Below, one piece after another: positions 83-41,615 of a stretch of DNA of 64,000 bases. Origin of the DNA: Lytechinus pictus (taxonomy: Eukaryota); the NCBI RefSeq assembly GCF_037042905.1, contig NC_087250.1, positions 20,090,001 to 20,154,000 of the forward strand, written 5' to 3'. Every line of letters begins with the position of its first letter. Positions within the stretch are counted from its first letter, which is position 1. The position numbers and the translations under genes are program-made. The notes under the pieces are model-generated. The model was not told where the DNA came from. It worked only from the letters and a program-made list of their open reading frames with translations, and did not search any database.

Positions 83-1153
83 GTGGTGACTAGTCTGTTC
101 AAAAATTTTAGTTTTGAATATTGTAATCCAGTGATCAAGATGGCTGAAAGTTCTAATGAGTTAGTTGACAAATTGATAACAGGTATTACTAATGCCTTAA
201 ATGTGCAAGGAGGTAGAGTGACACATCTGCGTGCCCCCGAATTACCACGATTTTCAGGTAAAACTTCTGTGGGAGATTTAACATTATCGCAATGGTTGGA
301 AGAAGTGGATATTTTTTGTGATCAATGTGAGATTCCCATAACACAGAAAGCCCAAGTTATTTTGAATCATTTAGATGGGGCTGCACGCCAGGAAATCAGA
401 TGTCACTCTGTCTCTTCAGATGATCTAGATACTTTGCTTTCTTTGTTAACACGTAATTTTGGATCTAAAGATACTACTCAAACCCTCAAGAAGAGATTTC
501 ATGAAAGAGTTCAGAAGGAGGGGGAGTCTTTGGATGAGTTTTCAAGGGCTTTAATGTGCATGTATGATGCTATCATAGATGTAGCACCAGATAGGGAAAA
601 AGAGGCACACAAAGGCCTTAGGGATTCTGCCCTTATTGACAAGTTTGTAGCTGGTGCACGTAGCAATAGCATACGCCTAGAGTTACGGCGTATCCGATTG
701 GCTAATCCTGATAAAACATTTTTAGAGATCAGAGATTATGCCTCAGATTTGTTGGAAAGCTTTGACACAAAGGTAGAGGGTACGTCCAATAAACGTGGAT
801 TGGTATATGAGGTGTCAGTTGATGATTGTCCTGAAGGGATAGCTAGTACAAGTAACATGCACACGGATAGTAGTTTGATTCATCATACGGTACAACAACA
901 AGCTGCATTAGAAAAATGTGTATTGCAGCAGCAAACTATTATGGAGCGTCAGCAAGAACAATTATCAGAGTTATTGGCTAGGAAGACCCAAGCAGCTCCA
1001 AAGTATACAAGACAGAAACGTAATCGAAGTTGTTTCTACTGTGGTAGACCTGGTCATATCCAGGCACAGTGTTGGGAGTTACAAAAACAATCACAGAATA
1101 GGAATTATGAGTATCAGAATTCAGGTGATTTAAATGCCAAACCCCCTCTCTAG
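83..1153 (+). CDS. gag: Gag-like protein (first ATG at 140)
   Basis: Open 356-codon frame with LPRFSG...WLEE capsid-like segment, Q-rich coiled coil and CX2CX4HX4C knuckle CFYCGRPGHIQAQC. Confidence 0.9.
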   Translation: MVTSLFKNFSFEYCNPVIKMAESSNELVDKLITGITNALNVQGGRVTHLRAPELPRFSGKTSVGDLTLSQWLEEVDIFCDQCEIPITQKAQVILNHLDGAARQEIRCHSVSSDDLDTLLSLLTRNFGSKDTTQTLKKRFHERVQKEGESLDEFSRALMCMYDAIIDVAPDREKEAHKGLRDSALIDKFVAGARSNSIRLELRRIRLANPDKTFLEIRDYASDLLESFDTKVEGTSNKRGLVYEVSVDDCPEGIASTSNMHTDSSLIHHTVQQQAALEKCVLQQQTIMERQQEQLSELLARKTQAAPKYTRQKRNRSCFYCGRPGHIQAQCWELQKQSQNRNYEYQNSGDLNAKPPL

Positions 1154-1193
1154 CACGGGACCGAAATGTTGAGGGGGAAACTCAGTCGGTCCC
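1129..1193 (+). promoter_or_regulatory. -1 programmed ribosomal frameshift signal: slippery heptamer plus H-type pseudoknot
   Basis: T TTA AAT at 1129-1135 in gag frame; 6-nt spacer; CCCCCTC 1142-1148 pairs with GAGGGGG 1171-1177; GGGACCGA 1157-1164 pairs with TCGGTCCC 1186-1193; the -1 frame is the protease frame. Confidence 0.88.
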
Positions 1194-2256
1194 TGTAGGT
1201 GATGTCCATGTTCCTAGCACTCAACTGACACCTGATGAGATATTAGATAAGTTAGTTCAACAGAGCCCCAAAGCAGTTGTTGATTTGGCTGGTGTTTAAG
1301 TTCAGTGTACATTAGATACTGTGGCAGAAACTTCTCTGATTAGTTCATCATTTTATCATGAGCATTTGGCTGACAAATTAAGTAATACAAAACTAGGGAA
1401 AGTATGTGTACAAGTTGTAGGTGCAAATCACCTACAAATCCCAATTGAAGGATATGTGGAAATTCCTCTTTCTGTAAATGACCATACATTAGGTGCCCAC
1501 TTCTTAATTGTTGATGACTCTGCGCATGGGAAGGCTATTATTGACAGTAAACAAAGTCATGTGTTACTAGGATGTAATGTATTGTATGATTTGAAAGACC
1601 ATGTAAATGATTTGAATGGGTCAGATGCTGAGGCTTGGAATATTGTAATGAAGTGGTTAGATCTTACTAAGCCTGTTGATTCAAATGACAAGAGACAAAG
1701 AGAATGTAAACCAAGTCGTGTTGTAAATGGTAGACCTGGTAGAAAACCTGTAGTCATACATTCTAGACAAGTGCAGACTGTAGTGTGTCAATTGAGAACC
1801 CCGCCAAATGCTTTGAAGGATAAAATGGTTGTAGTAGAAGGAAACCATGATATTGGTGAGACTTGTGCAATTTATGATACTTGTGAGAAGAGTAATGGCA
1901 AGTCGGTTACAGTTTTAATAGGGAATCTTGGCTCCCAACCCTTAGTTATTCCCCCATTTAGCAAATTGGTGAACGTGACTGAAGTCTTAGATTCCAATGA
2001 AATTATTGTAGAACCTCAAGATCAATATCTCAGTGTTTCCATCTTAAATGTGCTAGTAGAGTCACCCAGTGAGGCTCCTAATAGATTGCAGGATGTGCAG
2101 GAAAAGGAAAGTAATCCAAAGGATGTGTATACTTTCAGTGATGGTAGTCAATATACTTTGCCGCCAGGATTGAATCTGGAATCTTGTAAGGTTTCTAGGG
2201 ATGAAAAGGAAAGAGTGGTACGTCTCATTCAAAAACATGATGCTGTTTTTTTCTAA
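1129..2256 (+). pseudogene. pol N-terminal part: aspartic protease and linker, with premature stop
   Basis: -1 frame reads ...DLAGV*VQCTLDTVAETSLI (degenerate LDTGA, TAA at 1297-1299) and later VLLGCNVL; joins the RT frame if one T is removed from the T8 run near 2246-2252. Confidence 0.85.
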
Positions 2257-4963
2257 GGGAGATTTCGATGTTGGTTTTTGTTCGGAAGTACCACATGAAA
2301 TAAAGACAACTGATGATATACCGGTTAATCAACCATATCGTAGAATTCCCCCACATTATGTCAAAGAAGTGAAGGACACTTTACGGCAATTGTTAGATCA
2401 AGGGATAATAGAGCCAAGTAATAGTCCTTATGCAAGCCCTGTAGTTCTTGTCAAGAAAAAAGATGGTAGTTTGCGCATATGTGTTGATTATCGTCAACTT
2501 AATAAGAAAACGTTGAAAGATGCTTTTCCGTTGCCACGTATAGAAGAATCTCTAGAGGCCCTTAATGGTGCAGTTTATTTTTCATCTCTTGATTTAGCTC
2601 ACGGCTATCACCAAGTTGTAATGGATGCTGACTCTAGAAAGAAGTCAGCTTTTCGCGTTCCATTTGGTTTATTTCAATATAATAGAATGCCCTTTGGTTT
2701 GACCAATGCTCCGAGTACGTTTCAAAGAGTGATGGAGCGGTGTTTAGGTTACATGAACTTGACAGAGTTGCTAATTTATTTAGATGACATTCTTTTATTT
2801 TCTCCTTCAATTGATGTCCACTTAGATACTTTAGATAAAGTTCTTACAAGACTAGGTGAGTTTGGTTTAAAGGTCAAAGGAAAAAAAAGTAGTTTGTTTC
2901 AAAGGGAAGCTACATATTTAGGCCATGTGGTGAATGCTGAAGGCATTTCTCTAGATAAAGAAAAAGTTCAAAAGGTGTTGGACTGGCCAGTTCCAAGAAA
3001 TTCTGATGAGTTGAGGTCATTTTTAGGCCTTGCAAGTTATTATAGGCGTTTCGTTAAAGATTTTTCATCCATAGCAGCACCACTTCATGACATATTACCT
3101 CCAACTGTGAAGGGAAAGTCTAGCAAACCTAAACAATCCTTCTGTTGGACCAAAGAGGCTCAAAGAGCATATGATGAGTTGAAAGTAAGACTGGCAAATG
3201 TTCCAGTGTTGAAATACCAAGATTTTTCAAGGCCATTTATTTTAGAGATTGATGCCTCTTTGAAGGGACTAGGTGCATGTTTGTTACAAGAAGATAATCA
3301 AGGTGTCCCACATCCCATAGCTTATGCAAGTCGAGGATTGAGAGGGGCAGAGAAGAATTATCCCGATTACAGTTCCTTTAAACTTGAACTCCTCGCGTTG
3401 AAATGGGCAGTTGTCGATAAGTTTCGCAACTATTTGATCGGAGGTTTGTTCACGGTTCTGACAGATAATAACCCGCTTGCCCATATTCACACTGCTAAGT
3501 TAGATGCTTGCGCAATGAGATGGGTTGCCCAGTTAGAAGCTTTTAATTTTGATATTAAATTTCGTTCTGGTAAGAGTAACAAATGTGCGGATGCCTTGAG
3601 CCGGCATCCTGAACATTTCTGCGCAGTAGAAGTAGAGCAGGTAATGTGTGCAGTACTTGGTACTACAGGAACAGGCATCAATAAAACTGAACCTTGTGTC
3701 GCAGCTGTGAATCAAGGAACTTGTAACTTTCCTCCAGATAGATCTTCCCCTGGGATTTTCCCATCTTTGTCTCCAAGTCAGGTGACAGCATTGCAAAGGT
3801 CAGACCCCATCCTTAAGTATGTTTGGAAACGTTGGGATAAAGGCTTAGAGCCTACAGATGTAGTTAGCGGTATCAGAGAGCCACCAGAAGTTAGGCGATG
3901 GTTGTGGCAGTGGTCAAGGATTGTTGAGAAGGATGGCGTTCTCTGTAGGCATGTAAATGATCCTATACATGGTGAAATCTTTCAGTACTTGCTACCAGAA
4001 TGTCTTCGTGTAAGGGTTTTAGAAGGAGCCCATGATGGTTGGGGTCATCAAGGGGTCACTAGGACCTTTTCTGTTCTTAGAAGGCGTGTTTATTGGCCAA
4101 GGATGGCAGCATCAGTGCATAAGCATGTTAGTAATTGTACACAGTGTGTAATAGCTAAGGCCTCCCAACCACGCATTAGAACGCCAATGAGACATCTAAT
4201 AGCTTTTCGACCATTAGAGGTAGTGGCAATTGACTTTGTGAAAATTGATAAAGGACTAGGCGGTGTAGAAGATGTGTTGGTAATCACTGACGTGTATACC
4301 AAATTTACCCAAGCAGTGGCTTGTAGGGACCAACATGCTGTAACAGTTGCAAAGGTACTAAGAGATCATTGGTTTACAAAGTTTGGTATTCCTAACAGAA
4401 TACACAGTGACCAAGGCAGAAATTTTGAGAGGGAGGTGGTTAAGGAGCTTTGCAAATTGTATGGAATAACAAAGACTCACACATCCCCATATCATCCGGA
4501 GGGAAATGGACAAGCAGAAAGATTCAATCGTACATTATTTGGATTGATTAAATCCTTAGATCCGAAGGCAAGACATAGGTGGCCAGATTTGTTGTCTCAT
4601 TTGGTGTTTGTGTACAGCACAACCCCTCATTGCACGACTGGAATAGCTCCATATACTCTAATGTTCGGTCGAGAACCACTCATACCACTTGATCAGATTT
4701 TGGGCCGTACAGATTGTGATTGGAATCAAGATTTTGTTAGTCAACAATCTGAGCTCCTGGAGCGGACTAATCAGATAGTGCAAGAAAGAGTTAAGCAATC
4801 TGCTGCACATAATAAAGGGCTGCATGATGCCAAGGCCCCAGCATTTGGTAAGGGCATTCATATTGGTACCCAAGTACTTTTGAAAAAATGTGCTTTCCCT
4901 GGTAGACACAAAATCAAAGATGTGTATGAGAGGGATCAGTATATATGTTGTCTTCTGGCATAA
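2201..4963 (+). CDS. pol: pol: reverse transcriptase, RNase H, integrase
   Basis: SPVVLVKKKDGSLRICVDYRQLN, MPFGLTNAP, YLDD; RNase H DAS...TDNNPL; integrase HHCC and D,D(35)E-type core (AIDF, SDQG, NGQAER); C-terminus continues frameshifted to ~5397 (LRRST*VTRG motif). Confidence 0.96.
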   Translation: MKRKEWYVSFKNMMLFFSKGDFDVGFCSEVPHEIKTTDDIPVNQPYRRIPPHYVKEVKDTLRQLLDQGIIEPSNSPYASPVVLVKKKDGSLRICVDYRQLNKKTLKDAFPLPRIEESLEALNGAVYFSSLDLAHGYHQVVMDADSRKKSAFRVPFGLFQYNRMPFGLTNAPSTFQRVMERCLGYMNLTELLIYLDDILLFSPSIDVHLDTLDKVLTRLGEFGLKVKGKKSSLFQREATYLGHVVNAEGISLDKEKVQKVLDWPVPRNSDELRSFLGLASYYRRFVKDFSSIAAPLHDILPPTVKGKSSKPKQSFCWTKEAQRAYDELKVRLANVPVLKYQDFSRPFILEIDASLKGLGACLLQEDNQGVPHPIAYASRGLRGAEKNYPDYSSFKLELLALKWAVVDKFRNYLIGGLFTVLTDNNPLAHIHTAKLDACAMRWVAQLEAFNFDIKFRSGKSNKCADALSRHPEHFCAVEVEQVMCAVLGTTGTGINKTEPCVAAVNQGTCNFPPDRSSPGIFPSLSPSQVTALQRSDPILKYVWKRWDKGLEPTDVVSGIREPPEVRRWLWQWSRIVEKDGVLCRHVNDPIHGEIFQYLLPECLRVRVLEGAHDGWGHQGVTRTFSVLRRRVYWPRMAASVHKHVSNCTQCVIAKASQPRIRTPMRHLIAFRPLEVVAIDFVKIDKGLGGVEDVLVITDVYTKFTQAVACRDQHAVTVAKVLRDHWFTKFGIPNRIHSDQGRNFEREVVKELCKLYGITKTHTSPYHPEGNGQAERFNRTLFGLIKSLDPKARHRWPDLLSHLVFVYSTTPHCTTGIAPYTLMFGREPLIPLDQILGRTDCDWNQDFVSQQSELLERTNQIVQERVKQSAAHNKGLHDAKAPAFGKGIHIGTQVLLKKCAFPGRHKIKDVYERDQYICCLLA

Positions 4964-7579: not shown

Positions 7580-9728
7580 TATTTATATCCCTCTTATTCT
7601 TATGGATATTCTACAATGTAGATAAACGATTGGTCAATTCGAGATCAAGTATAATTTCAATAGGGGAAAAACATCGCTGCAAATAGCTAAATATCTCTGT
7701 ATAGTTTTCTTCCAGCTCCGTATATTTTTCGATATACTTTCATGGGCAGAACTTCGCATGCTCATGCTCGATATGTTCTCTCAACGTTGAACTGCGCTTG
7801 CTCTTAGCCGGATCGATCGACCCAGATAATCTGAAAAGTCATGCAGTGTACAATTGGGTTTAGATTATCATGCAGGAAATACAATTCCATGAAGGCCATT
7901 TATACAGGAAACCCAAAGTGAATTAGCATACTAATAAGGTGAGTCAAAGGCCGATATGAGAGTCTAAAAAAAGGTTAGCCCGCGGCTGCTCGCTTACAAA
8001 ATTATCTATAAGAAATTAAGTTAGACTGAGTGCAACTGCAGTGGCGCAGCGCACCTCTCACTGCAGTCAGGTACAAGCCGGCCGCGCGCAGCCTACCCAG
8101 GGACTGGCTAGCATGGACGATGCCCGGCAAGGTTTTATTGGTCTAGATTGGTTGCAAATCAGCAAGGAATAGGTCTAAAAGTTAAACATGTTAAAGAGAG
8201 ATATAAAACAAATATGTCAGGAATTTCTTTCGAAAGCTTAGTACACAAACATATCAGGCTTTGAGAAAGTATAGTATACAAATATACCAGGCTTTGAGTA
8301 AGAATAGCGGGAATTATTCATCCGAGGTTGGACTGGTATTAGTATTTTCGAACCTGTCATTTCTTGACTCCGTCTTTCTTTGTACGTGGGCAACGCAAGA
8401 CGGTGGGCGGCCACCGGTCGTCTTGCAAAGCTGTCCCGCTTCAAATTTGGTAGTACAGATGGGGTGTGACCATCTTCTTCTGCATGTTCGTCGAACGTTT
8501 TATAATACATGGTCAACCTGGATAAAAACGATGTTTATCGGTCATTGAGATAAAGACAAAATGCATAGCTTCATATCGTGTCACCGGCTCCGAGTTATTC
8601 ATCGATGGAGAAAGAAATTTAGCTGTAGGGGTAGGGATTAGGCCCCACATCTCTCGGGTTGTCGACGTCGGGACCTTGCAAGTGTCGGGAAAAGGAGAAC
8701 CCTTCATCCTGAGACTCACGCATGGCTGCATTGTAGAGAGAAGTCGAAAACCGCTGCAATTGAACCTGCCGGGGTAGCATATCTGGTTTCCGCTTAAACC
8801 CTCCGGATTAGTTGACGTCGACGAAGTCTGGTGAGTTCTCATTACACTGCGGTGAGAGGAGTTGTTTAACTGCGGGAGAATCGTCTTGGAAGGGGCTGTA
8901 TTGAGGTCAGCGGGCGATTGCTCTTTGGACGGTCTCATCGGGGATGCAGATCGGGTACTGAAGGCCGAAGGCGCTAGTCCGCTCGGGGATTGGACGCTAA
9001 CGGGGAACTCCGAGACATTATCTTCCAACCAACGCTTTCGACACGGCCCTTTATCTTCGTTATCGTGTGGTAGACCCTAGCTGTCTTCGATATCTCCGAG
9101 GGTGGTTTCTGGCACTGTCGTTTGGAAGCCTGACAGCCTTTGCGAGTGAAGCAGCAGGAGTCGCTGATAATTATGTAATGAAGCTCTTGTTACATTTTCC
9201 AGAACAGTCATTCACATTTAATTGTATATACTCTCATATTACAAACTATAAGATATGCTTGATTTGTATCTGAAAAGAAATGAACTCGTTATCTTATCAG
9301 CATGACGATGTGTTATGATTATGAGTGCTGCTATGCAGTTTGTTTTTATGCATGTTTTGCATTAGTGTGCATTTGGGATCTGAAAAAGATAGCACAAATA
9401 AATTCTGCAAACCTACCGTTAGACAGAACATTATATTTAGATATATTTTTTATAGATTCTGATGGTGTCATTTGGCGACACATTAAGTTACATTTTGGTC
9501 AACAGAATTTGCGGTTTAGACCCCAATATTTATTGTGGTCATAATTTATAATGCACGTAATAATTTCAACTAAATGTCTTATCTTCTTAGGTTCTGTGTT
9601 TGGTTTGATTGGTTACCATTCCCTCCAATAACTAAGTTTATAAGTTTGTTTTAACTGGATGTTATTGTGTATAAACTAAGGTTGTATCTCCTTTTTGCGA
9701 AGTATTTACACACACAGTCAAATTATGG

Positions 9729-9772
<44 letters not shown>

Positions 9773-9797
9773 TATATATATATATATATTATATATA

Positions 9798-10614
9798 CAG
9801 TGCGTCCCAGAAAAAACGAAACCGAGATTTAGCGATGATTTATCATAACTTAATCATAAATAAAATAGACAAATGACCTACCAATGTAAAGCTTAGAATG
9901 TCCTCTTTCATCTGGTATTACTTAGATTATTCCTCATTCACGCATGATTGAGCAAAAACAATTCGAAGAAAGGATGCCAAAAACTCATTTGGCGGGGGGT
10001 ATCTGAATTTCAAAAAGAAAATCACATTACTAAAAAGTTCAATATCTTCTCTTTTCTTTGATACCTAAATCACAGAAAATGGTCAAGTAGTAATTAGTTA
10101 TGATCCCTCGAAACAATGCTTGTATTTCCATAATTTCATCAAATAAACGTGTTTTCACCGGTTTCCCACAGAAGCTATCGCATGGTAACAAAAGACTTAA
10201 TGCATGGCTGATCGTCAACAAAACGGAGTGTCGAGTGAGTTTGAACGCTAGCCTGTATAACCTCTTCAGTTAATGAAATTATTGAAATTCAAGCCTTATT
10301 TCAAATAACCAGAATTTGTTATTTCTTGACCATTTTCTGTAATTGAGGTATCAAATTAAAGAGCAGATATTGAACTTTTTAAAAATGTGGTTTTCTTTTT
10401 GAAACCCAGATACAGCCAGCCAAGTGACTTTTTGGTATCCCCTTTTCAAATTGTTTTTGCTCACCTATGCGTGAATAAGAAAATATTTAAGTAATTTCAG
10501 ATGAAAGAAGAGATTCTAAGCTTTACAATGGTAGGTAATTTGTCTATTTTATTTGTGATTAAGTTATGATAAATCATCAATATATCTCGGTTTCGTTTTT
10601 TGTGGGATTCACTT
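9798..10614. mobile_element. Tc1/mariner-like MITE with long TIRs, inserted in a (TA)n tract
   Basis: TA-CAGTGCGTCCCAGAAAAAACGAAACCGAGAT ... ATCTCGGTTTCGTTTTTTGTGGGATTCACTT-TA; arms stay complementary for roughly 350 bp. Confidence 0.88.
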
Positions 10615-10643
10615 TATATATAAATGTGTAAAGTTATACATGT

Positions 10644-11029
10644 ACAACAGCTTTGGCAACTCTTTTATTTAAATATTGTAAAGAAATGGATGAAGAAAAC
10701 AATGGTAGGCGTAGCTTAAATCAAGGTCCCCCAGACCTATCTACCCTTTGGAAAAATTGGTGATGCCGAAAAAATGTCTCTGCCGGGAATCGAACCCGGG
10801 CCCCCAGCTTTGAACGCCGGTGCCTTAACCACTAGACCACAGAGACGGGTTAGTGGCTAGGGCGACCCCGATCCGATTGACCGTCAGATAGACAGATTTT
10901 CGACACTACCAATTATAATTTCCTTTGTCGGGTGAAGGTGGGTTTCGAACAATGACAAGCCGCCATGCTTCAGCTGGATCAAAGCTATTACTTTGATACA
11001 GTACACGTATGGGAGAAAGTATACAAATT
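10644..11029 (-). mobile_element. 386 bp insertion with an internal tRNA module, flanked by 17 bp direct repeats
   Basis: TGTAAAGTTATACATGT at 10627-10643 and 11030-11046. Confidence 0.75.
10775..10846 (-). tRNA. tRNA-like gene, 72 nt, Glu-type body, anticodon reads TCA (opal suppressor-like or repeat-borne pseudo-tRNA)
   Basis: GTCTCTG/CAGAGAC acceptor; D arm GTCT-AGTGGTTA-AGGC; anticodon arm CCGGC-GTTCAAA-GCTGG; 4-nt variable loop; T arm CCGGG-TTCGATT-CCCGG; followed directly by T6 terminator. Confidence 0.75.
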
Positions 11030-11680
11030 TGTAAAGTTATACATGTTAAGGCTAGGGCACCGGCGCGCCGCGGCGTTCAGTGAGCGCAGCGGGTTATCTT
11101 GGTTCAGATTAGAAAAAAAGATGAACTACGAGTACAAGAACTAGATTATCAAGATCTATTGCTCTAACTTATTGAAGTAGGATATAAAACAAATATACCA
11201 GGCCTTTATTTCGAAAGCATAGAAGGAGTTATTCATCCTCGGTTGTACTGGCAAAATCACTATTTATCCCTAGGGCCTTCGCCCCTCGGGAAAAATAGCA
11301 ATGCCAGTCCAACCTCGGATGAATAATTCCCGCTATACTTGCTCAAAGCCCGGTATAGGCTTAATGTGTATATTGCCAACAGTCCAACCGACGAGTAATA
11401 ATTCCCGCTATGCTTTCGAAGGAAACGCCTGCATATATTTGCTTTATATCCTTCTTGACTTTGATTTGCAGACCTAGTCCTTGCTGATGTGTAAACAATC
11501 ATCTAGACCATTCTAACGTTGCTGGACCTAGTCCTACAATTAGGCCTGTCGAGCTTACGCTAACCAGTTAATAGGTAGGCTACGCGTCGACTGCAGTTCA
11601 TGAGAGGTCCGCTGCGCTGCGCCTCGGCAGTTGCAGCACTCTAATTGTACACGCGCACAGGCTATATCTTGATTCACCTT

Positions 11681-31248: not shown

Positions 31249-32670
31249 GGTGACATACATATTATTTTAATGAGTCACTGGAAACCATCATTAACGGATC
31301 GCTTTTCAGATCAGTATATATAAAAATTTTCAGCTCATTCTCGCAATATTCTCTGATGAGTCATTGCAAACTGAAATTACCAGGGGCCTTTTTCAGATCA
31401 GGGTATTGACATCTTTAGCTCGCGCTTCGCGCTCGCATTAATTATTTAGTTAGATACGCACCTTGTGCATGATTATAAAAAACTACTAAAAACTAGAATA
31501 TTAAATATCATATCATTATACATGAAATATAAAGAACGATATTGGATCGCGTTTCCGAGTTCGCGTTATTTCCCGCCTTATCTCTTGTTATCTTGTGTGT
31601 AAGAACAAAACTTGAAATGTTAAAACTTCAGTCTTTTGAGAGGAATGCCCCCTTGAAAAAAAAAGCATTTTGCCGCCAAAGGGGGAAAATGTGAAGTTTC
31701 AAGATTATTTCTCTGATTTCAAATCCAAACATAAAGGATTACAATCAAATAAAATCAACAAATTTTAACAAATTATCAAACAAAAGTTACATTGATAAAT
31801 TATTTTTAGCAATAAACAGAGTCACATATTAAACAAAACGGAAAAGGGAAAAGAACATAACAAAATAAAGCAAAAGAAGAAATGAAACAAAGGGCTGTCA
31901 GAAATTGTTTGACTCCACTATCTGTCACTTTACAGGGCATAATTATTCATAACAAAACAATCATCAGGTACTTATTTGTCGTTCTGATTATCAACTGCAT
32001 AATTTGTTAAATATTTGTAATTGCGCCAATTTGAGGCCATGCTATTAATATACTTGGATCGCAAATCATATATTTTATTTATTCCAGTGAATCCGATGCA
32101 TATTTTAAACATATCCGTTTCTTTGGGCGCTAACAAAAACTTAAATTTTCAACATCATTGTATTCAATGAGATCTGGTATTACGTGTTTTATCTTGTCAA
32201 TCAAATTGGTACTGGGATTATCGAGATTTTTTTCATTGGGTATTAAAGTGATAATGAAAATATTCTTCTGCCAACTCCTGCCCCTCCCTCCATCGGCGAA
32301 AGCTGGATCCGCCCCTGGGTATATGGATTTTTAACTTGCAAACACTGTTAATAAAAACCCTGATTTTACAGGGGAAAAAAGAAGATTTTGCAGAAAGCAA
32401 TAACAGAATCATTCTGTCAATTCATAAAACAGGAATTTTTCTGCAATTTAACAGAACAGGTCTGTTTAAAAGGGGGGAAAGGGGGTTTTATTTAAGGAAA
32501 TTGTTTACAGTAAAGTTAAGTGTGAAGTGAGGTCAGGTGTGGGGGATGAGTTTATTAGAGGGTGAAGAGGGTCGTTTATTGGTCGGCGTTTATACCACGT
32601 GGTCTTAATGTTTTGAGTTTGTGTATCAAATGAGATTCCCTTTTAATGATGGTGTCGTGTTTCTTGTTTT

Positions 32671-32728
32671 TGTCTCACCTGCATAGCAGAGTGAGACTAT
32701 AGGCGCCGCTTTTCCGACGGCGACGGCG

Positions 32729-32779
<51 letters not shown>

Positions 32780-33671
32780 GCGGCGTCAACACCAAATCTT
32801 AACCTGAGGTTAAGTTTTTGAAATGACAGCATAACTTAGAAAGTATATGGACCTAGTTCATGAAACTTGGCCATAAGGTTAATCAAGTATTACTGAACAT
32901 CCTGCCTGAGTTTCATGTCACATGACCAAGGTCAAAGGTCATTTAGGGTCAATGAACTTAGACCATGTTGGGGGAATCAACATCAAAATCTTAACCTAAG
33001 GTTAAGTTTTTGAAATGTCATCATAACTTAGAAAATATATGGACCTAGTTCATGAAACTTATACATAAGGTTAATCAAGTATCACTGAACATCCTGCATG
33101 AGTTTCACGTCACATGACCAAGGTCAAAGGTCATTTAGGGTCAATGAACTTTGGCCGAATTGGGGGTATCTGTTGAATTACCATCATAACTTTGAAAGTT
33201 TATAGATCTGATTCATGAAACTTGGACATAATAGTAATCAAGTATTACTGAACATCCTGTGCAAGTTTCAGGTCACATGATCAAGGTCAAAGGTCATTTA
33301 GGGTCAATGAACTTTGGCCAAATTGGGGTATTTGTTGAATTACAGCCATAAATTTGAAAGTGTGTTGGTCTAGTTCATAAAACTTGGACATAATAGTAAT
33401 CAAGTATCACTGAACATCCTGTGCGAGTTTCAGGTCACATGATCAAGGTCAAAGGTCATGTAAGGTCAAAGAACTTTGGCCACGTTGGGGGTATTTGTTG
33501 AATTGCCATCATATCTCTATAAGTGTATTGGTCTAGTTCATAAAACGTGGAAATAAGAGTATCCAAGTATCACTGAACATCTTGTGCGAGTTATAGTAGT
33601 TTTCAAAATCAGCACTGCTGCTATATTGAATCGCGTGATGCAGGTGAGACGGCCAGAGGCATTCCACTTGT
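32671..33671 (+). mobile_element. Helentron/HINE-like element with satellite array, copy 2
   Basis: Same ends and repeat unit as 13369-15302 with fewer units and longer (GGC)n; inserted in a T6 run of the Penelope inverted arm with only 2 extra T and no longer TSD. Confidence 0.88.
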
Positions 33672-33849
33672 TTACTATTTTGATGGCAGTGATGTTAATG
33701 TTGTGTACTGTATGTCCGTTTACTTACTAGTAAACGCTAAATCACCACAAATGGCAACAGAAAATCACAACGGAAACAACCAAACAAATAATCATAACAC
33801 CAGTGACACGACATGCACCTTTATCACAGACACGTCAACACCAGAGCTA

Positions 33850-34285
33850 GGGTTCTACAAATGCAAAGCAAAAAAAATGTTCACTTCACCATCACATCCA
33901 AGAAACAACCACATTCACAAGTTCAGTCACTGGACAAAAATTCAACATACGCGATCACATAAACTGCAAATCCTCATGGGTCATCTACTTCCTAACATGC
34001 ACTAAATGCAACATGCAATACGTTGGAAAGACTGAAACAACACTATACCCACGACTAAATAACACTAGATCAGAAGTAACTTATTACAACAAAAACAAAC
34101 CCAACAGCAAAACCCTCCCATACACCATACATTTTAACCTTCCCGGACATACAGTACACAACATTAACATCACTGCCATCGAAATAGTAAAAAACAAGAA
34201 ACACGACACCATCATGAAAAGGGAATCTCATTGGATACACAAACTCAAAACATTAAGACCACGTGGTATAAACGCCGACCAATAA
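33850..34285 (+). pseudogene. Penelope GIY-YIG endonuclease domain
   Basis: INCKSSWVIYFLTCTKCNMQYVGKTETTLYPRLNN...HFNLPGH...RESHWIHKLKTLRPRGIN; frameshift in A7 run near 33870. Confidence 0.9.
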
Positions 34286-34550
34286 ACGACCCTCTTCACC
34301 CTCTAATGAACTCATCCCCACACACCTGACCTCACTTCACACTTAACTTTACTGTCAACAATGCACTATATACTTACGGACCTTACGGTAACTATATATT
34401 CTATACTTCGTTACATATTGACTCACCATTACCTTATATGAATAATTGGTTATTATTTATGGACTATAATTACTAATCTCCGTTATATATTGCATTGTAT
34501 TTATCATTGTTATTAGTAGGCCTATATTTTGTATTTTATATATTGGTTTA

Positions 34551-34590
34551 GATCCTGATGAAGGGCATGTGCCCGAAAGCTTGATGAAGA
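34551..34590 (+). ncRNA. Minimal hammerhead ribozyme motif of the Penelope pLTR
   Basis: CTGATGA-A-GGGC-ATGT-GCCC-GAAA-GCTT; palindromic AAGCTT in stem III position; ~270 bp downstream of the GIY-YIG stop. Confidence 0.75.
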
Positions 34591-34682
34591 CTGGTATTGA
34601 CCTTGCTACGACCCTCTCCATATTCTTGATCTCAAATATTATTATGAAGGAGACCCGTACACGTACATCGCCAAGATTGATC

Positions 34683-34713
34683 ACACACACACACACACCC
34701 TCACACACACACC

Positions 34714-34752
<39 letters not shown>

Positions 34753-34778
34753 GTATACATATATATATTTATATACAT
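34683..34778. repeat. (CA)n(TA)n microsatellite
   Basis: Direct reading. Confidence 0.93.
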
Positions 34779-36556
34779 AAGATCGCACTTTGCGTTCGCA
34801 TTATTTATTTAGGCCCTGTGAGATACCTTCATTGTGTTTTTGAGAATAAATTTAAGATTTTCTGTAACTTTCGTCTGTAGACCGAAACAATTATCTTGGT
34901 GCCCCCTACCAAAGTTTAAGCCGCCCCCCCCCCCCCGTGCGCCCCTGCTGAATAAATCCCAGCTACTCAACTGATGAGGAGATTGAGTTGTTTGCCTCCG
35001 AGATTGCACTATTTCCAAGAGGTTATCAATAACATTATTGAAGAAAATTCTAAAACGATTCGTATGAAATGACAGCTCCCGCTCACACAATTCTAGTAAG
35101 CCGGGCCCCTCTATGAAACCACCAATTGCTTCAAACAGAAAATTAATTGATTTTTTTCTTCATGAACACATATCATTAAAAAGAATCGGCATGCGTATTA
35201 CTCATGGCATAATCTAAGAAACTATAAGATCAACTTTCACGAGAAATCTCGTAACTAATTGATTATTGTTTCTTTTATTATTTTCTCTTTTTTCATTTTC
35301 ACACAATCTCATTAGTTGTAATCGATTACCTGTACTGAACCAATTCATTAGAGCATGGATCTATGCTTGTAGTTCAATTTCTATATTATTTTTGTTTAAT
35401 TTTCACAACTCACACATATCATTTATATTACACATGATAATATATATTTTAAAACATTCTATATTCTAAGACAACAATGTTAAAGTAAACAAATTATAAA
35501 AAAAAATATGTGATATTAACTAGCATAATTATTAATATAAGAGTATATATAATTTTCACATTCAAGACCTCATTCATTCTACGAAACTTAGCAAATTAAT
35601 ATAATTATTTTGGCAGTGGACTGCATACGGTATGCGTTCACTAATTTTAGGATAGACAGGCATACTGTAAAGAATTCGGCAAGTCAGATTACCGAAATGT
35701 CTGTGTAGATATATGATGAAACATGTGACAGAAAATTCTGGAGAAAGTTGTGTAACTGCTGAGATAAAAAGCTAAACATGCATGACATTTTTTTAAAATC
35801 AATATCTTTCCTCGGAACGATCATTTTCTTCGCCAAATTTTGCCTGAATGTGCAACATACGAAGGGAGTTTCAGAAACAACGAAAATTCAAAATTGACTG
35901 ACGTGTCTCTTGCTTCGTTTTGCGAAAGTTGAGCAAAATAGTCAACATTATGAAAAATGGTCACTAGAATAGTTATTTGTTAAAAAGTATTCTAATACTT
36001 TACTAGTATGTTTAAGTTTCTAATATTTATTAAATATTTATTAAATAAATAATTTTGGCAGTGAATCTCGTACGTTTTGAGATCACTATATTAAAGAAAA
36101 TTGAATTCATTGGAAAATTCAAGAAAACTTGTGCAAAATCAGAAAATCAAAGAAACCGATCAATAATTCAGTTAATAATGAGAAAGTTATGAGAATTTGA
36201 AGTTTAAATCTTTATTGTAATATAGATCCTCCCATTGGCAATGCGACAAAAAACTGTGATGTCACATGTGAACAACTTTGCCATTACTTTTGTATATACA
36301 CTACTCAAAAAAAGTTAAGGACCACTTTTTAAAACGTACATAAAGATTTTATACAAGGTGTTTTATTTCTGGAAATACCTCAGTACAACTGTCCTAAATG
36401 TCCTTAAACACGCTGTAATCAATTTCACGCATGGGTGGTTTCAGTTGTTGCACAATGTCTCTCGCATCACTGCACATCCTGAAATGTGGGCCCCGAGGGG
36501 TATCAGCTACCGACATGAAGTGGTAAAAACGAATGTCTGAGTGTCTTTCAGGCAGT

Positions 36557-37569
36557 TCAGTAACGAGTGTGACCACCTCCTGCAGCAATAACGGCTTCAC
36601 AGCGCTGTCTCATGGAGCTGATGAGGCGATTGATGTCTCTGACGTCCAGTGCATCCCATGCAGCCTCCAGAGCCACACCCAGCTGCTGCAGTCCAAGTGG
36701 ATGGGCTTCGAGCTGCTCGAGACTCCTCCCCATCATGTCCCAGACGTGCTCTATCGGGTTTAAGTCCGGGGACCTCGCTGGCCACTCCATACGCTCAATC
36801 CCCTGGCCCTCAAGGAACTCGGTCACCACCCTAGCTCGGTGGGCACGGACATTGTCATCCATGAAAATGATGTTTTGTCCCACATTTTCTGCAAATGGCA
36901 CCACTATAGGTTCAAGGACCTCATCCCTGTACCTCACTCCTGTCATTGCTCCCCCTGGGACCACGTAGAGACGAGTACGGTTGGTGTAGGTGATGCCTCC
37001 CCACACCATGACGCTGCCTCCCCCATAACGGTCATGTTCTGCAATACAGGGGTCTGCAAATCTCTCTCCTGGTCGCCTCCAGACTCTCGAACGTCCATCA
37101 TTGTGGTCAAGGGAAAATCTGCTCTCATCTGTGAACAGAACTCTACGCCATTGCTGTCTGGTCCATCTGACATGCTCCCGGGCCCAGTTGAGACGAATTC
37201 TTCTGTGAGCAGGGGTGAGTGGGACACACTGAGCTGGCCGTCTGGCATGCATATTGGCTCTGTGAAGTCGGTTACGGATTGTTTGAGTGGAAACAATCAC
37301 TCCAGTTGCTGCAGCGAAGTCATTGTTGAGGCGGCGTGCACTGTGAAAGCGGTTGCGGAGGCTGAGATTCGTCAAGTAGCGATCATCTCTAGGGGTTGTC
37401 GAAACTGGTCGGCCACTGCGGGGTCTCTCGGAGTATAGCCCTGTCTCTCGGTGTCTTTGATTTGCTCTGCTAATGACACTGTGTGACACGCCCATCATTC
37501 TGGCTACTCTTCGCTGACTGAGGCCAGCTTCCAGCATCCCTAGGGCTCTGGCTACATCTGTTTCACTTA
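36557..37569 (-). CDS. Tc1-family transposase, open but lacking its first ~6 codons
   Basis: HTH domains, RSGRP, TDESRF, VMVWGGI, MDDN, WPARSPDLNPIE; 34 residues between second D and E; native MPRHHL start replaced by a duplication junction. Confidence 0.93.
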
Positions 37570-38270
37570 TTTTCTGCAAATGGCACCACTATAGGTTCAA
37601 GGACCTCATCCCTGTACCTCACTCCTGTCATTGCTCCCCCTGGGACCACGTAGAGACGAGTACGGTTGGCGTAGGTGATGCCTCCCCACACCATGACGCT
37701 GCCTCCCCCATAACGGTCATGTTCTGCAATACAGGGGTCTGCAAATCTCTCTCCTGGTCGCCTCCAGACTCTCGAACGTCCATCATTGTGGTCAAGGGAA
37801 AATCTGCTCTCATCTGTGAACAGAACTCTACGCCATTGCTGTCTGGTCCATCTGACATGCTCCCGGGCCCAGTTGAGACGAATTCTTATGTGAGCAGGGG
37901 TGAGTGGGACACACTGAGCTGGCCGTCTGGCATGCATATTGGCTCTGTGAAGTCGGTTACGGATTGTTTGAGTGGAAACAATCACTCCAGTTGCTGCAGC
38001 GAAGTCATTGTTGAGGCGGCGTGCACTGTGAAAGCGGTTGCGGAGGCTGAGATTCGTCAAGTAGCGATCATCTCTAGGGGTTGTCGAAACTGGTCGGCCA
38101 CTGCGGGGTCTCTCGGAGTATAGCCCTGTCTCTCGGTGTCTTTGATTTGCTCTGCTAATGACACTGTGTGACACGCCCATCATTCTGGCTACTCTTCGCT
38201 GACTGAGGCCAGTTTCCAGCATCCCTAGGGCTCTGGCTACATCTGTTTCACTTAGGTGGTGTCTTGGCAT
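37563..38270 (-). pseudogene. Truncated Tc1 transposase (native ATG, stops before the second D and the E)
   Basis: MPRHHLSETDV...VVPFAENK*; 685 bp tandem duplication relative to the downstream copy. Confidence 0.9.
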
Positions 38271-38601
38271 TGCTATCCAGCTGTCCAGGATGCCATCAAA
38301 CACAATGAAATCAATTTCACACATGCAGTTCTTTCATGTCTCTTGCATCATTGCAATGTGCCCGTACAAAAGTGGCTTCCAAAGCATTTTCTGTCTTTAG
38401 TCTCTACAATCAACAACTTGCTGACAATAGCAATGCCAAGATACAGCTGTCCAGAATGCCATCAAACACAATGACATCAATTTCACACATGCAGTTCTTT
38501 CATGATGTCTCTGGCATCATTGCAGTGGGCCATAAGACAAGTGTCTTCCAAAGCATTTTCCGTCTTTAGTCTGTACAATCAACAACTTGCCTACAACAGC
38601 A

Positions 38602-39422
38602 ATGCCAAGACACCACCTAAGTGAAACAGATGTAGCCAGAGCCCTAGGGATGCTGGAAGCTGGCCTCAGTCAGCGAAGAGTAGCCAGAATGATGGGCGTG
38701 TCACACAGTGACTTCACAGAGCCAATATGCATGCCAGACGGCCAGCTCAGTATGTCCCACTCACCCCTGCTCACAGAAGAATTCGTCTCAACTGGGCCCG
38801 GGAGCATGTCAGATGGACCAGACAGCAATGGCGTAGAGTTCTGTTCACAGATGAGAGCAGATTTTCCCTTGACCACAATGATGGACGTTCGAGAGTCTGG
38901 AGGCGACCAGGAGAGAGATTTGCAGACCCCTGTATTGCAGAACATGACCGTTATGGGGGAGGCAGCGTCATGGTGTGAGGAGGCATCACCTACGCCAACC
39001 GTACTCGTCTCTACGTGGTCCCAGGGGGAGCAATGACAGGAGTGAGGTACAGGGATGAGGTCCTTGAACCTATAGTGGTGCCATTTGCAGAAAATGTGGG
39101 ACAAAACATCATTTTCATGGATGACAATGCCCGTGCCCACCGAGCTAGGGTGGTGACCGAGTTCCTTGAGGGCCAGGGGATTGAGCGTATGGAGTGGCCA
39201 GCGAGGTCCCCGGACTTAAACCCGATAGAGCACGTCTGGGACATGATGGGGAGGAGTCTCGAGCAGCTCGAAGCCCATCCACTTGGACTGCAGCAGCTGG
39301 GTGTGGCTCTGGAGGCTGCATGGGATGCACTGGACGTCAGAGACATCAATCGCCTCATCAGCTCCATGAGACAGCGCTGTGAAGCCGTTATTGCTGCAGG
39401 AGGTGGTCACACTCGTTACTGA
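38602..39422 (+). pseudogene. Defective Tc1 transposase copy in opposite orientation
   Basis: Native ATG at 38602; ~210 bp internal deletion at 38710 shifting the frame; TGG>TGA at 38976-38978. Confidence 0.92.
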
Positions 39423-39854
39423 ACTGCCTGAAAGACACTCAGACATTCGTTTTTACCACTTCATGTCGGTAGCTGATACCCCTCGGGGCCCACTTTTCAG
39501 GATGTGCAGTGATGCGAGAGACATTGTGCAACAACTGAAACCACCCATGCGTGAAATTGATTACAGCGTGTTTAAGGACATTTAGGACAGTTGTACTGAG
39601 GTATTTCCAGAAATAAAACACCTTGTATAAAATCTTTATGTACGTTTTAAAAAGTGGTCCTTAACTTTTTTTTAGTAGTGTATTTCACTTAAACTGCCTC
39701 TTTCATCTGTCATCTATCAGTAGATCGTGTGTTCTTTCTATAGTGAGAGCATGTCATGCAGATTTTTAAATGAATATTATTATGGATAAGGAGTTTGTAT
39801 CACCATTATGGAAGAGCAGAACGAGACATTTTGGAGGCATTTTTTGGTCCATCA

Positions 39855-41615
39855 CAGAGGTGGATCAAGCTTTCGCAAAAGGGGGGGGGGTGGCGATTTT
39901 TTTTACCCATGTTTTCCCCGATCGGCCGCTTTTTATTTGTTTCTTTGAAGGGGTAGTCCTAACAGTCACTTCTTATCTTTATTATCACAAAAACATAGAT
40001 AAATAACAATCTCAATGTGTTGGCTCTGTTGGTAGAGCGTCCGTCTCACAACCGGGAGGCCGGGGGTTCAAACCCCCCAAAAAGTTAAAAGATGGGAGTT
40101 GCTGCTACCTTATTTGGCGTTCAACGATTAAAGGGATAGAGCCTCGTCGATCTGGCGCTGCGCAGCGACAGCCGGGCCCTCGTTCGGAGTAATTCATTTC
40201 ATGTCTATTTCGAACAATAAAAACATGGATTTTCATATCAGACCTAATTAAATAGTACGAGCGCGAGCTAATTTTTTCAGGAAATTTCATGTATTTTGAA
40301 CAAAAATTGAACATTTGATCTGAGCATTGTTGTGATCGTGAACAAGATCTGTATGTAACTAAATAATTACTGCGAGCGCGAATCGCAAGCAAAAATTTTT
40401 AATGTACGTTCTGACCATGGAAAACAGATCTTAAGGACTGTTTGAAGTCACCCATGAAAACGATACATATTTCAACAATCCAAATAATTCGAGCGCGAAG
40501 AACGAGGTGAAAATTTTTGACATTTTGACCCAACAATTTGACATTCTAAGCACTTTTTGTAATTATAAGCAGGATAGGTACATAACTAAACATTTCATGC
40601 AAGCGCGAAGCGTGAGCGAAAAAAAAAATAATAGATATAGACCTAAAAACGGGACACAGTATTCGTGTTTCGTAAATCACAAAACGGATGACTAATTGGG
40701 TATCTTCATAAATTAATAATGAGAGCGCGAAGCGCGAGAAGAAATTTTTTGATATTCTGGTATGAAACTGGATAATTTAAGTCCGTTTTGAATAAAGAAC
40801 AAACTGCGTATTTGTTGCGTGCGCTTGTTTTTTGAGATCTCGACCTAGAATCTGGGCATTTTAAATGCATTTCTTTTATTATGAAAATCAATAATGCGCG
40901 AGCGCGAACTGAAAAATTATGGCGATTTGAAGAGGGTCAATTTAAGCACTATTTCAAGCATCGTAGGAAATTTGTGAAGTGGATATGGATCGTAAAACGC
41001 GAGCAGATTTTTTAAAATGATTATTTAGACCAAGCACTCGGGACAATTGTACGGACATTTTGTCATCATATGAAATTGACTATTTTCCTGTTCCCCTTCC
41101 TAAGCGCGAGATGAAACTTGTCGATATCGATATTCCGTTCTGAAAAAAGGGACAAAGTCATTATTAGGAATTCATGAAACTGTTACCTTATTTATCAATC
41201 TAATATTAATGAGAGTTCGAAATCTGTTGATATTAAAGCCTGAAAACAGGACATTTTAAACATTTTTGAATATTTTTTACGGCCTACTTGTCTGTGCGCA
41301 TTGTGGTAATACGCCTATGCAGAGCTAATCGGCCGTTGATGGATAGAGTGCAGGAGACCCATGTGCAGGGAATGTCTTGAGGTGAGCACAGTTGCGGTGG
41401 CGTGGATTGCCTACATGACTACCAACAGAATGCGGTGCCACTGCGATCGGGCCGGTCGTTACGAGGCCGTAAATGAAACATGGAGATAATACCTCCTTCT
41501 TACCTTTCTTTCTGTTTTTCAGTGTTTCTCTCAAGTTAAAAGGACATTTTTTTTGGTTGCCAAAAAAAAAATAGGGGGGGGGGGGCTGGGCCGGCCCCCC
41601 TTAGATCCGCGCCTG
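39855..41615. mobile_element. Non-autonomous DNA element with GCGAGCGCGAAGCGCGAG internal motifs, carrying a SINE fragment (~40018-40180) and a small MITE (~41277-41473)
   Basis: Ends CAGAGGTGGATC...GATCCGCGCCTG; paralogous partial copies at ~50737-51557 and ~60370-60820. Confidence 0.7.

Follow-up and report, generated by a model that had tools for sequence, protein, structure and literature searches.

Among the described systems closest to the locus analysed here, animal non-LTR retrozymes are non-coding, low-GC repeats of 150-450 bp that occur as tandems from monomer to multimer, are strongly self-paired and have neither LTRs nor a PBS, all of which applies to the present unit as well, and they have been proposed to be non-autonomous derivatives of Penelope-like elements (PLEs) (PMC7229834; 10.64898/2026.07.22.740005). 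The unit differs from them in that it has no type I hammerhead and carries an intact tRNA-like Pol III gene with a terminator, together with a decayed inverted copy of that gene. Insertions of Naiad, of other endonuclease-positive PLEs and of non-autonomous Chlamys such as MRC1 have a partial tandem, an end at (TA)n and an inverted head-to-head piece in common with the unit, and Naiads are likewise described as lacking a canonical hammerhead; in contrast to these elements, the unit has no ORF, has its inverted piece frozen inside and shows no 3' similarity to the one PLE tested (PMC8557442). Helenus/TRIMp3 elements are also short non-autonomous retroelements with an internal tRNA-like sequence, which inflates tRNA predictions including those of suppressors; Helenus requires paired LTRs, a PBS, a PPT and a 4-bp target-site duplication (TSD), whereas the unit has no paired LTRs, no PBS at a boundary and no 4-bp TSD, and no echinoderm Helenus is listed in the available part of that report (PMC10886601). 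With tRNA-derived SINEs the unit shares the A and B boxes of a tRNA, and its intact arm alone (a tRNA head with a tail of ~150 nt) has a SINE-like layout; such SINEs have the tRNA head at their 5' end and are read through it into a tail of simple repeats, whereas the tRNA of the unit is complete and central with a T6 directly behind it, poly(A) and a true TSD are absent, and copies are tandem and permuted. SURF1 is a tRNA-derived SINE of sea urchins. Eukaryotic tRNA-Sec has the UCA anticodon in common with the module, which carries A73 instead of the essential G73 and has no long variable arm (PMC5330540). By the features tested, the unit likely works like a non-autonomous PLE passenger and is not a retrozyme, a SINE, a Helenus or a tRNA-Sec.

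The locus lies in a 64-kb window, by which the whole stretch of DNA that was analysed is meant. The reading that is preferred here, with somewhat better than even confidence, is that it holds a young member of a non-coding tandem repeat family with a 403-bp period, a high copy number and a tRNA-like gene, which would be a likely non-autonomous retroelement inserted into microsatellites by a Penelope-like reverse transcriptase and whose tRNA-like module is probably non-decoding. The features are as follows.

10622..11046, minus strand (the probable RNA sense): inserted copy of the repeat family that spans ~1.05 units (a 403-bp period and 22 nt of overlap), from family-level depth over 10621-11040 and the joint from 11024 to 10622
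10622..10643, no strand: left terminal overlap copy, abutting the TA tract; 22 letters fit either side of the joint, and 10627-10643 is exact
11025..11046, no strand: right terminal overlap copy; T at 11029 is a private change, G having 47,379 of 48,406 depth in DNA run X1
9732..9797, no strand: (TA)n tract making up the left portion of the probable target, the right remnant being 10615-10621
9798..10614, no strand: unrelated foldback/MITE with inverted arms of ~350 bp (83.6%), in the TA tract beside the unit; the end of its family appears as loose ends behind 10601 and 10607
10775..10846, minus strand: tRNA-like cloverleaf of 72 nt with 7/5 fold, short variable loop, G1-C72, A73, G32, U33 and anticodon UCA (ARAGORN, Rfam, stem check)
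10811..10813, minus strand: anticodon UCA, the family majority (ARAGORN; contigs of X15 and X16)
10829..10839, minus strand: Pol III A box TGGTCTAGTGG (sequence; alignment to the Rfam tRNA model)
10786..10796, minus strand: Pol III B box GGTTCGATTCC (sequence; alignment to the Rfam tRNA model)
10769..10774, minus strand: T6, a Pol III terminator immediately behind the discriminator A (sequence)
10752-10756, minus strand: a further T5 (sequence)
10848..10965, plus strand: decayed inverted head-to-head copy of the tRNA gene with ~70 nt of its tail (alignments against shuffles; folds)
10978..10997, no strand: small hairpin of 8 pairs with a 4-nt loop (folds); with the letter that the family majority has at 10990, the stem is Watson-Crick

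The direct repeats of 17 bp at 10627-10643 and 11030-11046 are exact, with 386 bp between them, and lengthen to 27 nt with two mismatches; in 300 of 300 shuffles the longest repeat was shorter, reaching 13 at most. A sequence-only reading had described a 386-bp unit bounded by these repeats, and they are indeed beyond chance. It had also taken them for TSDs, an interpretation that was rejected because both repeats carry family depth and other copies continue through them as unit sequence; they belong to the element itself, whose tandem or circularly permuted units overlap there. Four of 24 sequencing runs were placed on 10561-11160, namely X1 (DNA), X15, X16 and X21 (RNA). In X1, where 10,183 contigs fell on this interval (those of the neighbouring MITE end counted in), the summed contig depth, which is not a copy number and marks a very abundant family only, was 0.2-1.1 million over 10621-11020, 58,863 at 11021-11040 and 21 in the flank at 11061-11080, with the left repeat at family level (337,128 at 10621-10640). 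Other copies run past 11046 into the unit's own start, ACAACAGCTTT, which is the sequence at 10644 (X15, X16), and the unit's own end precedes 10618 in 19 contigs of X1 and one of X15. The join of 11024 to 10622, i.e., 403 back, was found in 202 reads (104 + 98, with 66 starts) of X21, and five of the X1 contig joints go back 386-404 bases and a sixth 367, among the 15 of 71 joints listed. As the joints lie 403 back, with 22 letters fitting either side, the copy consists of one 403-bp period plus a 22-nt overlap.

When the flanks of the insertion were compared, they had at most TA in common and no TSD, including no 4-bp TSD. No long terminal inverted repeats exist at the unit's ends, and no further copies of the unit were detected within the 64-kb window besides matches to the MITE arm and the overlap. 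On its left the copy abuts TATATA, a remnant of a (TA)n tract. Other left ends vary between 10624 and 10680 and adjoin TG, TA or AT-rich sequence (among the 20 of 682 loose ends listed, which are short contig ends); those listed include 34 contigs with a TG repeat before 10625, one with a TA repeat before 10666 and 39 with AT-rich sequence before 10680.

Only one tRNA was predicted by ARAGORN in the 64-kb window (10775-10846, minus strand, anticodon TCA), and it scores 60.9 bits with the Rfam tRNA model, the gathering score of which is 29. Its stems of 7/4/5/5 pairs are all paired, with two G-U wobbles (U11-G24 and G29-U41), and its anticodon loop is GTTCAAA (G32 U33 U34 C35 A36 A37 A38). Taken alone, the cloverleaf has only a modest folding advantage over shuffled sequences (z -2.0), and the probability that its D stem is paired is 0.19. 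The nearest annotated tRNAs are Asp, Cys and Arg, all ~75% alike (phage tRNA-Asp 73-75%, tRNA-Cys 77% over 79% of its length, and Arg 75-76%); the D arm of the module presumably resembles that of eukaryotic tRNA-Arg. A second tRNA-like match, at 40020-40079 on the plus strand (Rfam 39.2 bits), has no acceptor stem and is followed by repeat sequence, and is probably the head of an ordinary tRNA-derived SINE.

The family sequence was then compared with the copy in the window. One contig of X16 (depth 177) matches 10737-10906, the whole tRNA included, with no other letter, and one of X15 matches 10730-10849 with a single other letter, at 10736, outside the tRNA; UCA is the majority anticodon of the family. 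Among 40 of 215 variants listed, 28 lie in the unit, at 25 distinct sites, and the tRNA (72 of 403 bases) holds one of these 25 sites, compared with 4.5 expected (P 0.047). This sole listed tRNA variant, at 10779, turns U4-A69 into U4-G69 and keeps the pair. No indel falls in the tRNA, compared with 11 in the unit, among 12 of 25 listed. At seven listed sites of 403, none of them in the tRNA, the window copy differs from the X1 majority, and two upstream variants in X15, 10 letters and 4 gaps apart, branch at 10850, just outside the tRNA. The lower variability of the tRNA than of its flanks hints at constraint on the module in source lineages. Single X1 contigs have deletions through the tRNA (from 10764 to 10807 and from 10765 to 10802), which indicates that individual copies decay. 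In X15 and X16, which come from organisms D and E, the family and the neighbouring MITE end are present at a depth of 100-500 with the majority letters of X1; this signal fits trace DNA of organism A (the host species) or a close relative, and these runs were therefore used for the majority sequence alone and not for cross-species conservation.

Upstream of the module, 118 bases (10848-10965, plus strand) align to the minus-strand tRNA gene and its tail. The A-box part is kept (2 of 2000 shuffles were as good), and the part with the B box, acceptor strand, terminator and ~70 nt beyond was matched by 0 of 2000 shuffles, while ~19 nt over the anticodon arm are deleted and the B box and terminator are degenerate. 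Thus, the unit is an intact tRNA-headed arm joined head-to-head to its own decayed copy. A perfect two-arm palindrome over the whole unit was also considered and rejected, the distal part not being significant (342 of 2000 shuffles). The account given in the sequence-only reading of a fully paired 72-nt cloverleaf with A and B boxes, an immediate T6 and the loop GTTCAAA agrees with the results above, as does its placing of the tRNA in the middle of the unit, a central position that is explained by the decayed inverted copy lying head-to-head upstream; it had named a different or variable anticodon in the consensus as evidence against its proposal, and the majority in the X15 and X16 contigs keeps UCA.

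The whole unit folds as a long rod (z -6.8 when linear), and its circular fold has a z of -7.7 for the minus strand versus -3.1 for the plus strand. The predicted probability of the acceptor stem is 1.0 at 0-5 leader bases, 0.78 at 10 and 0.0 at 15 or more, and forcing the cloverleaf is predicted to cost 3.9 kcal/mol at 15 leader bases and 22.9 kcal/mol in the whole unit. According to these predictions, the cloverleaf would be hidden by the inverted arm as soon as an RNA has at least 15 leader bases. Of the 28 listed variants, nine keep predicted pairs, seven break them (7 of 16 at paired sites) and 12 are unpaired; three of the seven pair-breaking ones fall in the masking arm. The strong fold is no evidence of selection for masking, because any decayed inverted duplication would give a strong fold.

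According to the preferred reading, a long minus-strand RNA, either a multimer or a circle, would serve as the template and would probably be made by Pol II or by read-through of the T6 and T5; since these two runs stand behind the tRNA, the template is probably not a plain Pol III product. By analogy with Penelope-like insertions, it may be primed at a nick in (TA)n, and copying of slightly more than one period would leave the overlap of 22-27 nt. In the long RNA the inverted arm is predicted to pair with the 5' half and the acceptor strand of the tRNA, so that RNase P and RNase Z would miss the cloverleaf and the template would stay whole, whereas a short Pol III transcript with at most 10 leader bases is predicted still to fold as a tRNA. 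The intact A and B boxes are likely kept because they aid transcription of source loci through Pol III/TFIIIC binding, and the anticodon was likely carried along passively once it had become fixed in the source lineage. In support of this reading are the partial tandem of ~1.05 units with its end at (TA)n and the ends of other copies at TA or TG repeats (among those listed), as insertions of Naiad and other PLEs are marked by partial tandems, 5' inverted copies, tails of 30-40 bp and (TA)n targeting (PMC8557442). (CA)n(TA)n is also found at the end of the Penelope-like fragment in the window. Against this reading, the 3' likeness of the unit to this sole Penelope-like end in the window is at chance level (score 18, with 173 and 176 of 200 shuffles as high). 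As a further counterpoint, conservation of the tRNA above its flanks (among the 40 of 215 variants listed) is not needed by a pure passenger and would fit a functional RNA equally. The characterisation of the unit as atypical and retro-mobilised, neither an ordinary SINE nor tRNA-Sec, had already been made from the bare sequence; it is retained here, with retro-mobilisation as probable. If the Penelope-dependent explanation holds, PLEs would have a class of ribozyme-free passengers with a complete tRNA gene at their core, in effect their equivalent of SINEs, and one family would be the source of many false 'tRNA-Sec/suppressor' calls made for this genome. A template that contains a tRNA could escape RNase P/Z by means of the predicted masking arm, an explanation that is simple and open to testing.

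RNA reads of the family were obtained from X21, about a quarter of which was read: 3,855 reads were placed from 12.9 million records, 660 of them at least 95% alike, and 63% of the placed reads run on into unlike sequence. First mates are about equal on the plus and minus strands everywhere, and the RNA strand thus cannot be read from this run. In this library of 150-nt pairs, which is blind to a 75-nt RNA, there was no pile of starts or ends, and neither a step in RNA depth nor a start pile was present at 10846. Because reads run on, lie on both strands and form no piles, most of the signal comes from copies inside longer RNAs. C at 10779 accounts for 0.5% of X1 depth versus 46% of the X21 reads at this site, an enrichment that suggests dominance of a single locus or a small number of loci, or else variation between individuals. 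Other variants enriched in X21 are found at 10762, 10963 and 11012, and a locus with the 10779 variant is a candidate source. Reads that span the unit's junction occur in RNA, and the same junction exists in DNA too.

It is unlikely, although deserving some weight, that the repeat is instead a DNA-level element or satellite with a captured tRNA gene and no RNA intermediate, whether a rolling circle of the Helitron/Helentron type, a tyrosine-recombinase circle or a tandem satellite spread by recombination. Circular DNA and rolling circles are further sources of head-to-tail junctions and a terminal overlap, a small hairpin is present at 10978-10997, and no PLE partner was found when the one PLE end in the window was compared. 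However, depth and reads pass through this hairpin without an end, other copies begin on the left at varying positions (10624-10680) beside simple repeats, and the unit's ends lack long terminal inverted repeats.

Much less probable is a role of the cloverleaf in place of a hammerhead, in which RNase P and/or RNase Z would cut multimers into monomers or circles that are then reverse-transcribed. The size, tandem form and rod-like fold of the unit match those of non-LTR retrozymes (150-450 bp; PMC7229834), yet without the hammerhead core: the core CUGANGA...GAAA is absent from both strands of the unit, neither of the two CTGA sites having it, and no Rfam ribozyme matched the unit up to E 10. 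Conservation of the tRNA and the existence of junction-spanning RNA reads would fit such processing, but tandem DNA explains the junction reads equally well, the ends of copies are off the tRNA borders, RNA reads show no ends there, and the cloverleaf is predicted to be masked in the long RNA.

A tandem TRIM of the Helenus/TRIMp3 kind, of which the copy would comprise a single LTR, a very short internal region and 27 nt from the LTR that follows, is a shade less probable still. A tRNA-like sequence with A and B boxes in a short repeat is known from Helenus (PMC10886601), and the only purine run of at least 9 in the unit (9 nt, 11011-11019, plus strand) stops precisely at the start of the 27-nt repeat. 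Against this stand the lack of a second LTR (the overlap has 22-27 nt and does not contain the tRNA), the lack of a 4-bp TSD, ends that begin with TA rather than TG, and the varying left ends of other copies. Moreover, no site is complementary to the 3' end of the module's own tRNA, and 0 of 3 CA-N0-3-TGG sites lie at a unit boundary.

It is very improbable that a genuine tRNA is produced by the family, becomes charged (Trp being the most plausible amino acid) and decodes UGA, acting as a suppressor that is selfish or tolerated by the host. G32 is atypical for a tRNA, and both it and U34 make efficient charging and decoding less likely; judging from these positions, charging of the module would be possible but unlikely. 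In favour of a UGA reader are the intact A and B boxes with the T6, the predicted cloverleaf of short-leader transcripts, the UCA majority, the tRNA being the least variable part among the variants listed, and the 10779 variant (46% of RNA reads), which keeps its pair as U-G; in addition, A73, G1-C72, C35 and A36 are eukaryotic Trp determinants (PMC1538984, PMC9976931). On the other hand, position 34, where C is a major determinant for TrpRS, holds U in the module, and its fifth pair is C-G instead of U5-G68 (PMC1538984). As for Arg identity, A20 is absent from the module (criterion of PMC9976931). Thousands of active suppressor genes would be costly, single contigs delete through the tRNA, and there is no pile of starts or ends in RNA, though the library cannot show a mature tRNA. 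High-scoring tRNA-derived repeats have precedent (10.1101/614032), and tRNA-Sup-CTA of Helenus is a precedent for a predicted suppressor borne by a repeat (PMC10886601). The least probable version, hardly to be expected, is a Penelope-dependent element that spreads thousands of Trp-like UGA-reading tRNA genes with a fold switch, in which the arm would conceal the cloverleaf of the long template RNA, whereas short transcripts made by Pol III would yield charged tRNA and raise UGA read-through, possibly for a partner with an in-frame UGA such as selenoprotein-coding Naiads. If the tRNA were charged, there would be an animal in which a mobile element changes how a stop codon is read, a far greater surprise. 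A tRNA-Sec was rejected, as the module has 72 nt, a 7/5 fold, a 4-bp D stem, a 4-nt variable loop and A73, while a tRNA-Sec is defined by a 9/4 acceptor/T fold, a 6-bp D stem, a long variable arm, 90-101 nt and G73, and most Sec calls of ARAGORN are reported to be false (PMC5330540).

Searches for relatives of the family gave no member in public viral sequences, in prokaryote genomes or in a first metagenome search (0 each). A second metagenome search returned 22 loci, of which 19 match a motif of 20-23 nt only and three are tRNA-Arg(TCT) genes ~75% alike, and hence none of them is a family member. A scan of the unit for bacterial promoters and terminators remained at chance level. In the literature, covered by titles and the starts of abstracts and outside Repbase/Dfam, subscription journals and supplements, no description of the family was found. 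The predicted masking arm and the read-level head-to-tail junctions of the family are new here.

The window as a whole is rich in repeats, with LTR, Tc1-like, LINE and Penelope-like fragments. By run depth, the MITE at 9798-10614 belongs to a very abundant family. The Penelope-like element at 33577-34780 is 5'-truncated and has a GIY-YIG domain, a hammerhead core at 34555 (the only occurrence of the core in the window) and a 3' end of (CA)n(TA)n; an inverted piece of 172 bp belonging to it lies at 32500-32671, set apart by a 163-bp tandem repeat element. Young copies of a Tc1/mariner-type transposase (343-aa ORF with DDE_3 and HTH_Tnp_Tc3_2), nested in inverted orientation and >99% identical, occupy 36296-39683, a region that also contains a 169-bp tandem at 38278-38610. 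A Ty3/gypsy-like element is located at 83-4963 on the plus strand; its ORFs, labelled gag-, protease- and pol-like by reading the translations, lie in different frames. Finally, 11175-11456 consists of nested inverted and direct repeats (a 36-nt direct pair and inverted arms of 52 nt and 23 nt) and is related to 8115-8348; it represents another small foldback family.
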